Made by a program: the position numbers and the translations under genes. A stretch of 64,000 nt of DNA from Eubacteriales bacterium (lineage in GTDB: Bacteria; Bacillota; Clostridia; Oscillospirales; CAG-272): assembly GCA_045612865.1 (NCBI GenBank), contig JAZKZW010000082.1:5135-69134 (forward strand). Direction: 5' to 3'. Under the pieces are notes generated by a model. It did no database searches. It was not told where the DNA came from and was given only the letters and a program-made list of their open reading frames with translations. Positions 22,444 to 22,519 of this stretch are shown piece by piece; the first letter of the stretch is position 1; every line of letters begins with the position of its first letter.

Positions 22444-22519
22444 TGGCTGGGAGTGTGGGATTCGAACCCACGCGTAACCGGGTTAGAGCCGGAGGCCTTA
22501 GCCGCTTGGCGAACTCCCT
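22444..22519 (-). tRNA. suppressor tRNA, anticodon CUA (reads UAG), tRNA-Gln-like
   Basis: cloverleaf: D-stem GCC/GGC, loop CUCUAAC, T-arm GTGGG-TTCGAAT-CCCAC, acceptor AGGGAGT/ACTCCCA, G73, encoded CCA; D-arm near-identical to tRNA-Gln(UUG) at 45026. Confidence 0.75.

Follow-up and report, generated by a model that had tools for sequence, protein, structure and literature searches.

Gut phages of several groups, including crAss-like, Lak and Agate phages, use genetic code 15 and carry a suppressor tRNA with the anticodon CUA (Borges et al., 10.1101/2021.08.26.457843; Peters et al., PMC9523058). phAss-1 ('Phassvirus'; OQ749652.1), a gut phage of ~136 kb, has dozens of tRNA genes, several of them annotated as tRNA-Sup-CTA (Babkin et al., PMC10607447). 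The acceptance of phage suppressors by a host synthetase was left as an open question by Borges et al. (10.1101/2021.08.26.457843). Here we analysed a 64-kb stretch of contig JAZKZW010000082.1 (64,000 nt; hereafter the window), for which an initial annotation had proposed a phage-encoded amber-suppressor tRNA of tRNA-Gln ancestry on the minus strand. The sequence comparisons presented below suggest, with a probability of roughly 80%, that this gene encodes a functional amber-suppressor tRNA of a gut phage lineage with genomes of ~130–135 kb, in which TAG has been reassigned from stop to glutamine (code 15).

ARAGORN, the first check that had been suggested, called a 76-nt tRNA with the anticodon cta at position 34 at exactly 22444–22519 on the minus strand. 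The Rfam tRNA covariance model (RF00005) agreed and matched 22447–22519 with 46.4 bits (gathering score 29; E=9.5×10−7 over the whole window). In a permissive Rfam search of 18000–23200 this tRNA was the sole meaningful match, and neither a ribozyme nor a group I intron was found in that region. ARAGORN listed 25 tRNA genes for the window, all on the minus strand, and we found no second CUA tRNA within the window. Read arm by arm, the tRNA is AGGGAGU-UC-GCC-AAGCGGCUAA-GGC-C-UCCGG-CUCUAAC-CCGGU-UACGC-GUGGG-UUCGAAU-CCCAC-ACUCCCA-G-CCA. The anticodon loop C32-U33-C34-U35-A36-A37-C38, with U33 and a purine at position 37, reads UAG as proposed, and the D-arm (GCC-AAGCGGCTAA-GGC, with G18G19 in a 10-nt D-loop), the T-loop TTCGAAT, the pairs G2-C71 and G3-C70, G73 and the encoded CCA are all present. 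The predicted weak 1-72 pair turned out to be an A·A mismatch. A second mismatch, U·U at 27·43, leaves the anticodon stem with four standard pairs out of five positions. Free-energy folding gave a cloverleaf-like minimum with an unremarkable z value (−1.16) that is uninformative, so that the evidence for the cloverleaf comes from the two tRNA detectors.

ARAGORN printed the name tRNA-Pyl, as it does for every cta anticodon; the label stems from the anticodon alone. Pyrrolysine tRNAs are marked by an anticodon stem of 6 bp, by a variable loop of 3 nt, by a small D-loop that lacks GG and by the absence of a T-psi-C consensus. The tRNA described here, with five positions in its anticodon stem and 5 nt in its variable loop, has G18G19 in a D-loop of 10 nt, and its T-loop is the standard TTCGAAT. 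Moreover, none of the 71 window proteins gave a pylS- or pylBCD-like Pfam match, and TAG aligns with glutamine (see below). The structure rules out tRNA-Pyl, and we give this identity practically no chance.

If the tRNA supplies the decoding of TAG-containing genes, as had been proposed, TAG should be a sense codon in this DNA. None of the 71 window genes ends in TAG (TAA 50, TGA 21). When TAG was read as sense, eight full-length genes emerged that contain 27 in-frame TAG and not a single in-frame TAA or TGA. Seven homing-endonuclease-like genes account for 26 of the 27 codons: three GIY-YIG genes, one LAGLIDADG gene and three paralogues that combine CxCDCG...SCGC repeats with a DUF2726-like nuclease domain. 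The eighth gene, for a protein of 163 aa, lies directly downstream of the tRNA and has a single TAG as codon 3; there is no alternative start before a GTG at 22192, and its orthologues (157–165 aa) follow the tRNA in related phages. We considered whether the interrupted endonuclease genes are pseudogenes and rejected this, because the only interruptions are TAG, the TAG positions are conserved in orthologues and full-length homologues exist.

The distribution of TAG among the genes is strongly uneven. TAG occurs in 7/10 endonuclease-like genes vs 1/61 other genes (Fisher p=7×10−7); those without it are two HNH genes (30124–30732 and 49842–50480) and a PD-(D/E)XK gene (44404–44847). The codon counts TAG/CAG/CAA were 26/8/102 in the ten endonuclease-like genes and 1/165/251 in the other 61, and TAG thus largely takes the place of CAG in the former. 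The base following the in-frame TAG codons showed no clear bias.

To assign the amino acid, we needed relatives of this phage. Nucleotide (20000–26000) and protein searches (including the gyrB product) of a phage collection returned no close relative: there was no nucleotide match, and protein identity was ≤36%. In IMG/VR, neither an exact 36-mer of the tRNA nor the RNase H protein had a match, an exact protein record of the window RNase H was not found, and a metagenome scan with a DUF5662 profile gave only distant, suppressor-free loci. Relatives were reached via the DUF5662 protein encoded beside RNase H and via a RecJ-like protein. These are gut-metagenome and IMG/VR contigs of 100–135 kb (loci labelled L below) with 75–96% protein identity and conserved gene order. 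Of the public contigs, IMGVR_UViG_3300029305_004519 (135 kb) is the closest. The proposed phage origin of the tRNA is borne out by these viral contigs and by a phage-type gene content with replication, repair and RNA-ligase genes, HNH/GIY-YIG/LAGLIDADG endonucleases and a 25-tRNA array.

We compared orthologues codon by codon at the DNA level. The TAG codons of the window face TAG (9), CAA (8), CAG (1) and other codons (9) in relatives, and the relatives' TAG codons face TAG (9), glutamine codons (6) and codons for other residues (6) in the window. Glutamine is thus found at 15/30 discordant sites, followed by histidine with 2, against a background frequency of ~5%. The glutamine partner is mostly CAA, which is two substitutions away from TAG. 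In paralogues, the motif YIG-TAG-S corresponds to YIGQ and C-TAG-CDCG to CQCDCG. In-frame stops in the relatives' orthologues were TAG in 21 cases vs TAA in 1. The predicted insertion of glutamine is therefore supported by codon-level data.

A homologue search with the nine-TAG protein (24949–25761) found full-length relatives with Q in most TAG columns, and one column was Q in 120/120 homologues, a count that includes code-15 translations; locus L087 has a real Gln codon there. We did not accept residue counts at TAG columns of database homologues as evidence, since they are partly circular: the encoding contigs had been translated with TAG=Q. The database entries for L087 639–1475 and L088 2974–3786 (proteins P0121 and P0122) are examples of this translation. 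Any inference of a reassigned codon from homologues in a large protein database needs a check at the DNA level.

One observation speaks against the reading as glutamine: about half of the discordant sites face other residues (His, Arg, Ser, Lys, Glu and others). Such a proportion is expected at 55–95% identity, and another polar residue is still conceivable.

If the tRNA is responsible for the altered code, both should occur in the same genomes. We examined 80 IMG/VR loci with a DUF5662 homologue (L354–L433) and counted the stops of open reading frames (ORFs) of at least 100 aa. A CUA tRNA was present downstream in the nine closest loci, and the 71 more distant ones (63–72% DUF5662 identity) had no tRNA in this slot. 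TAG accounted for 2/88 stops in the loci with the tRNA vs 124/637 (19%) in the 71 loci without it (Fisher p=7×10−6); for the 0/71 TAG stops of the window against the tRNA-less loci, p was 7×10−7. The tRNA and the code change travel together. As ordinary TAG stops occur in the 71 tRNA-less loci, only a subclade has changed its code, and its close sisters keep the standard one.

The slot itself is conserved, with the order DUF5662 – RNase H – tRNA – small gene – gyrB (topoisomerase II B subunit) in relatives; gyrB follows the 163-aa gene in the window as well. Its tRNA varies, with eight different CUA-tRNA bodies of 75–99 nt (Gln-like, Trp-like and others) in related phages. G73, G2-C71, an encoded CCA and the loop CUCUAA(A/C) are common to all eight. 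Seven of them have a mismatch at 1·72 (A·A, U·C, U·U, U·C, U·U, U·U, A·C), and one has U-A. Among 487 other phage tRNAs, 7% had a mismatched 1·72 and 19% had G73.

These data bear on the question of whether the window tRNA could be a decaying, non-functional copy, with read-through provided by a suppressor outside the window or by another mechanism. Several points count against function: the two non-standard pairs (A1·A72 and U27·U43), an Rfam score among the lower ones in the window, and the unremarkable folding z. In addition, only 64 kb of ~135 kb are visible, recoded phages can carry two or three suppressor tRNAs, and a suppressor elsewhere could decode TAG, phAss-1 having three (PMC10607447). 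Against decay, the orthologous tRNA in L332/L355 (a 135-kb IMG/VR contig) is identical at 75/76 positions, with the sole change in the variable loop, and keeps A1·A72. In relatives free of TAG stops the slot always holds a CUA tRNA with G73, CCA, promoter and hairpin. Finally, a mismatched 1·72 is the rule in this slot, which makes it look selected rather than decayed. We consider a decaying copy very unlikely.

We next asked where the tRNA comes from. The proposed tRNA-Gln ancestry stood up in part. The nearest tRNA in the window is the phage tRNA-Gln(UUG), with 61/76 matches and an alignment score of 32 vs ≤17.5 for all other window tRNAs. Among 754 cellular tRNAs retrieved by the D-arm, the best matches were tRNA-Gln(UUG) of Christensenellaceae and Clostridium metagenome-assembled genomes. 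Similarity outside the D-arm had a median of 12.5 for Gln vs 2.0 for Cys. The tRNA also matches what we take to be the sequence of E. coli tRNA-Gln2 at 60/76 positions. Two results weigh against this ancestry. The exact D-arm 18-mer was found in 70 cellular tRNA-Cys vs 26 tRNA-Gln, and isotype hidden Markov models built from cellular tRNAs scored Cys above Gln (42.6 vs 30.7; masked, 18.9 vs 9.9), with a training set biased by the D-arm search pattern. We rejected these models as a fair test for that reason, the training loci having been chosen by the D-arm pattern itself. Because the D-arm is common to tRNA-Cys and tRNA-Gln, the body sequence alone does not settle the ancestry; tRNA-Gln appears to be the best reading, not an exclusive one.

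The Gln-like signal sits at the acceptor end (G73, G2-C71, G3-C70 and an open 1·72), and tRNA-Cys has U73. The identity elements of glutaminyl-tRNA synthetase (GlnRS) G73, G2-C71, G3-C70 and G10 are all present. The weak U1-A72 pair of tRNA-Gln is replaced by A1·A72, which leaves the end unpaired all the same. The anticodon departs from the YUG of tRNA-Gln by a change of G36 to A, as in supE, with C34 and U35 kept. In E. coli, an unpaired 1-72 together with G73 turns amber suppressors into GlnRS substrates, and G2-C71, G3-C70, G10, C34 and U35 contribute to this. Judged by these E. coli identity rules, the acceptor end makes charging by the GlnRS of the host most likely.

If the host lacked GlnRS, the tRNA could be made into Gln-tRNA via a non-discriminating GluRS and the amidotransferase GatCAB; another alternative is direct charging with a different amino acid such as Trp, His, Lys or Glu. 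The best cellular matches of the suppressor come from gut Clostridia and appear to point to hosts many of which make Gln-tRNA indirectly; this is a point against GlnRS charging. Many Firmicutes have no GlnRS. Bacterial tRNA-Trp likewise has G73 and a weak 1-72 (U1·U72 and G73 in the window tRNA-Trp), the slot tRNA of relative L089 has a Trp-like body, and half of the discordant TAG sites face residues other than glutamine. On the other side, GatCAB requires U1-A72, and a CUA anticodon with an A1·A72 end would be a poor signal for both GluRS and GatCAB. TrpRS needs a CCA anticodon, and CysRS needs U73 and GCA. Glutamine is by far the commonest partner of TAG (15/30 vs 2 for His), mostly as CAA, and glutamine is also what E. 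coli tRNA-Trp receives when its anticodon is CUA (cited so in 10.1101/2021.08.26.457843). Taken together, we regard these alternative routes as improbable, though less so than decay of the tRNA.

In some relatives the slot tRNA has an additional arm. In the tRNAs of L001/L356 (L001 11288–11386), L005 (11186–11275), L090 (11194–11285) and L378 (from 5179), the variable region is long and folds into a hairpin whose 7-nt loop reads GUCUGCU or CUCUGAA. This loop carries a Gln anticodon in anticodon-loop register (Y-U-CUG/UUG-A-N). Two-armed suppressors are also present in the IMG/VR loci L092–L211 and in phAss-1 (OQ749652.1, 62442–62532), where an identical 91-nt tRNA bears just the annotation tRNA-Sup-CTA; tRNA arms are not a topic of the phAss-1 paper (PMC10607447). 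The window tRNA has no pseudo-anticodon arm.

A pattern scan of IMG/VR for CUA tRNAs gave 54 unique long-arm examples. The loop N-U-CUG/UUG-N-N was present in 38/54 of these vs 0/109 other long-arm tRNAs from the same loci, with 0.8 expected after shuffling. CUG and UUG, both Gln anticodons, alternate in the loops. The stems covary; two inner pairs were required by the selection, so that only the covariation of the outer pairs is unbiased. Between the loop and the T-stem there are 8–10 nt, as is canonical for a real anticodon arm. The 3′ spacer has 5–7 nt and the loop 7 nt, compared with 1–3 nt and 4–5 nt in ordinary arms of the Ser/Leu/Tyr type. The acceptor ends of the two-armed CUA tRNAs are Gln-like.

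In a full-text literature search we found no description of natural Gln pseudo-anticodon arms and only an engineered analogue (Mukai 2020, PMC7590224). In that work, the variable region contains a hairpin modelled on an anticodon stem-loop, by which a synthetase domain can be recruited, and the true anticodon is CUA; the system is synthetic and combines an allo-tRNA chassis with HisRS fused to an extra anticodon-binding domain (PMC7590224).

We hypothesize that the slot may repeatedly install or evolve unrelated tRNA bodies, which converge on an unpaired 1·72, G73, G2-C71 and a CUA anticodon. These acceptor-end features would be the minimal handle to hijack the Gln-charging enzyme of the host, and the 76-mer of the window would be a stripped-down version. 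The two-armed tRNAs may present a Gln pseudo-anticodon to the synthetase while the true anticodon decodes UAG, and TAG may act in this lineage as an expression lock on homing endonucleases. As a joint picture, an exchangeable code-change cassette between RNase H and gyrB with Gln-charging handles, a pseudo-anticodon as second handle and a TAG lock is tentative, and we think it somewhat unlikely to hold in all its parts.

The annotation had assigned a private promoter to the tRNA. The sequence TTGATT-N17-TATAAT is indeed there, alone in front of the tRNA, with 10/12 consensus matches and a spacing of 17 nt in our scan. The sequence is not private. Promoter sites of loose consensus occur locally at chance level (7 found vs 5.9 expected). 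The strict form TTGAYW-N16-18-TATAAT has 25 copies on the gene (minus) strand vs 2 on the plus strand, which indicates the standard promoter family of the phage. The copies are near-identical (TTGATTTT..AAAAA..TATGnTATAAT), with a spacer rich in A and, in many cases, ATATGTAA following the −10 element; examples on the minus strand are at 62892, 53381, 45593, 43388, 41361, 26886, 21880 and 541. The ROOL RNA and parts of the tRNA array also have copies in front of them. An alignment of five or six related loci showed the −35, the −10 and the downstream ATATGTAA to be invariant or nearly so despite differing tRNA bodies. One copy of the standard promoter is thus predicted to serve the tRNA. The phage itself encodes a sigma-70 family factor (28216–29127).

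The strong hairpin terminator claimed downstream also needs qualification. The hairpin behind CCA is strong (9 bp, 3-nt loop, −15.8 kcal/mol, z=−2.84), and relatives have a GC-rich hairpin with a T-run at the corresponding place, formed by different stem sequences. Its tail in the window, UUAUCU, is a weak U-tract, and the gene after the hairpin starts ~20 nt further on without a promoter of its own. Read-through is therefore likely, the hairpin probably attenuates rather than stops transcription, and the 163-aa gene is apparently co-transcribed with the tRNA.

From these elements we propose the following sequence of events. Host RNA polymerase would transcribe the tRNA together with early and middle genes, and RNase P and 3′ exonucleases would trim the transcript to the encoded CCA. 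A host enzyme, most likely GlnRS, would then charge the tRNA with glutamine by reading the unpaired 1·72, G73, G2-C71, G3-C70, G10, C34 and U35. The charged suppressor would compete with host release factor 1 (RF1) at UAG. Full translation of the seven endonuclease-like genes and the 163-aa gene would be possible only once the suppressor is present.

In TGA-recoded Agate phages, an intron endonuclease is preferentially recoded, and recoding was proposed to delay its production (Borges et al., 10.1101/2021.08.26.457843). The concentration of TAG in the endonuclease genes of the window is consistent with recoding that delays or gates harmful genes. The 10 kb beyond the left window edge are still TAG-poor, and searches with two proteins from the right edge, aimed at the late-gene region, gave no match. 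With the late genes out of reach, gating of endonucleases is inseparable from a simpler explanation, the avoidance of TAG by early genes.

The coordinates of the features are compiled in Table 1.

Table 1. Position of the suppressor tRNA, its control elements, neighbouring genes and TAG-containing genes in the window
Feature	Position	Strand	Remarks
tRNA(CUA)	22444–22519	−	76 nt, class I, 5-nt variable loop, A1·A72, G2-C71, G3-C70, G73, encoded CCA; ARAGORN and RF00005
Anticodon CUA (tRNA positions 34–36)	22484–22486	−	7-nt loop CUCUAAC, read from sequence
Putative sigma-70-type promoter TTGATT-N17-TATAAT	22547–22575	−	−35 at 22575–22570, −10 at 22552–22547; ~27 nt upstream of tRNA 5′ end
Terminator-like hairpin AGCCUCCUC-UUA-GAGGAGGCU	22411–22438	−	Stem 22438–22418, then UUAUCU; a few nt separate its end from the ribosome-binding site of the following gene
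RNase H gene	22581–23105	−	Pfam PF00075, 1.7×10−34; upstream neighbour, defines conserved slot
163-aa gene directly downstream of tRNA	21908–22399	−	AAGGAG-N5-ATG ACA TAG; TAG is codon 3 (22391–22393)
tRNA-Gln(UUG) of phage	45026–45105	−	Nearest window tRNA to suppressor
270-aa homing-endonuclease-like gene	24949–25761	−	CxCDCG...SCGC repeats and DUF2726-like nuclease domain; 9 in-frame TAG, no TAA/TGA
Gene with C-terminal GIY-YIG domain	11070–12227	−	4 in-frame TAG; two also TAG in L001 orthologue
LAGLIDADG endonuclease gene	18491–19423	−	1 in-frame TAG; between two parts of split gyrA
Paralogue of 24949–25761	35176–35934	−	1 in-frame TAG, motif WNC-TAG-CDCG (paralogues CQCDCG)
GIY-YIG endonuclease gene	54449–55258	−	4 in-frame TAG, first in YIG-TAG-S (paralogues YIGQ)
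GIY-YIG/NUMOD3 endonuclease gene	57764–58594	−	2 in-frame TAG
Paralogue of 24949–25761	59671–60600	+	5 in-frame TAG

Other genes identified in the window by Pfam encode a RecJ-like protein, a DnaB helicase, an AAA_24 ATPase, an NAD-dependent ligase and a split gyrA product, and there are genes for an RNA ligase, a kinase, a phosphatase, a sigma-70 family factor, a NAPRTase, Band-7/vault-like proteins and several homing endonucleases. No structural genes were found in the 64 kb, and no release factor or aminoacyl-tRNA synthetase among the window proteins.

The gyrA gene (16118–19764, minus strand) is split into a 79-aa N-terminal ORF (19525–19764) and a 705-aa remainder (16118–18235), with the LAGLIDADG gene between them. 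The interruption is presumably an intron; a group I intron was not found at this site by Rfam, even at E≤1. In relatives L002 and L004, gyrB is split instead, by a GIY-YIG gene. A group of genes near the suppressor resembles an RNA-repair set (25820–28106 and 35995–36306, minus strand). They encode a metallophosphatase, an AAA_33 kinase, an RNA ligase (PHA02142 OB domain and RNA_ligase) and a cREC_REC protein with a cyclic-phosphate-processing domain.

At the edge of the tRNA array lies a full-length ROOL RNA (42702–43321, minus strand; RF03087, 161.6 bits), preceded by the phage promoter copy at 43388–43348. Within the array (minus strand), the tRNA at 52677–52751 has an 8-nt anticodon loop, AU-AGUU-AA, and was left without a name by ARAGORN, while a degenerate tRNA-Asp(GUC) at 47186–47257 was detected by Rfam only. 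The tRNA-Trp(CCA) with U1·U72 and G73 mentioned above (53602–53677) resembles the Trp-like suppressor of L089.

Our findings extend the list of viruses that decode TAG as glutamine by one lineage, large gut phages whose hosts are probably Clostridia. Such genomes need annotation with code 15, as code 11 breaks eight genes of the window. The existence of close standard-code sisters without the tRNA makes this group a clean natural system for studying stop-codon reassignment. Within the replication half of the genome, almost all uses of the reassigned codon fall in selfish endonuclease genes, which fits delayed or gated expression of harmful genes. The acceptor-end signature and the pseudo-anticodon arm suggest how a phage gets a host synthetase to accept a reader of a stop codon, and both bear directly on the engineering of tRNAs that are orthogonal or hijack a synthetase.

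The window tRNA is a new example, from an undescribed lineage, of a known class, the suppressor tRNAs of code-15 phages (10.1101/2021.08.26.457843; PMC9523058; PMC10607447). As in the described code-15 phages, a phage-encoded CUA tRNA is found in a low-GC gut phage genome in which TAG does not serve as a terminator but occurs in frame. TAG is apparently read as glutamine, no phage GlnRS is seen and charging by the host is presumed, and the replication genes are essentially free of the recoded codon. Unlike those phages, the window belongs to another lineage, by the criterion of no nucleotide match and ≤36% protein identity in the phage collection. In the visible 64 kb, TAG is almost confined to homing-endonuclease-like genes (26/27), and there is neither a theta ribozyme nor a release-factor gene near the tRNA.

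The lineage resembles phAss-1 in genome size, in its many tRNAs, in TAG standing for glutamine, in that no synthetase of its own was found and in a suspected Clostridia host. The two belong to different phage groups. In phAss-1, two suppressors lie side by side near ribonucleotide reductase genes, whereas the window tRNA occupies the slot between RNase H and gyrB, and one phAss-1 suppressor is of the 91-nt two-armed type, which does not occur in the window. The arms of this type, found in relatives and not in the window tRNA, differ from the engineered pseudo-anticodon system in being natural phage arms with Gln anticodons and in having no known partner protein.

Gln-inserting amber suppressors of E. 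coli include supE (tRNA-Gln with CUA), the Su+7 tRNA-Trp with CUA and mutants of the su+3 tRNA-Tyr at positions 1, 2, 72 and 73. They share with the window tRNA a CUA anticodon on a Gln-like or foreign body, and a weak or unpaired 1-72, G73 and G2-C71/G3-C70 that favour glutamine. However, they are cellular tRNAs with point mutations made in the laboratory, and their suppression is partial, whereas the window tRNA is a natural, conserved phage gene for a reassigned codon, and its position 1·72 is a full A·A mismatch.

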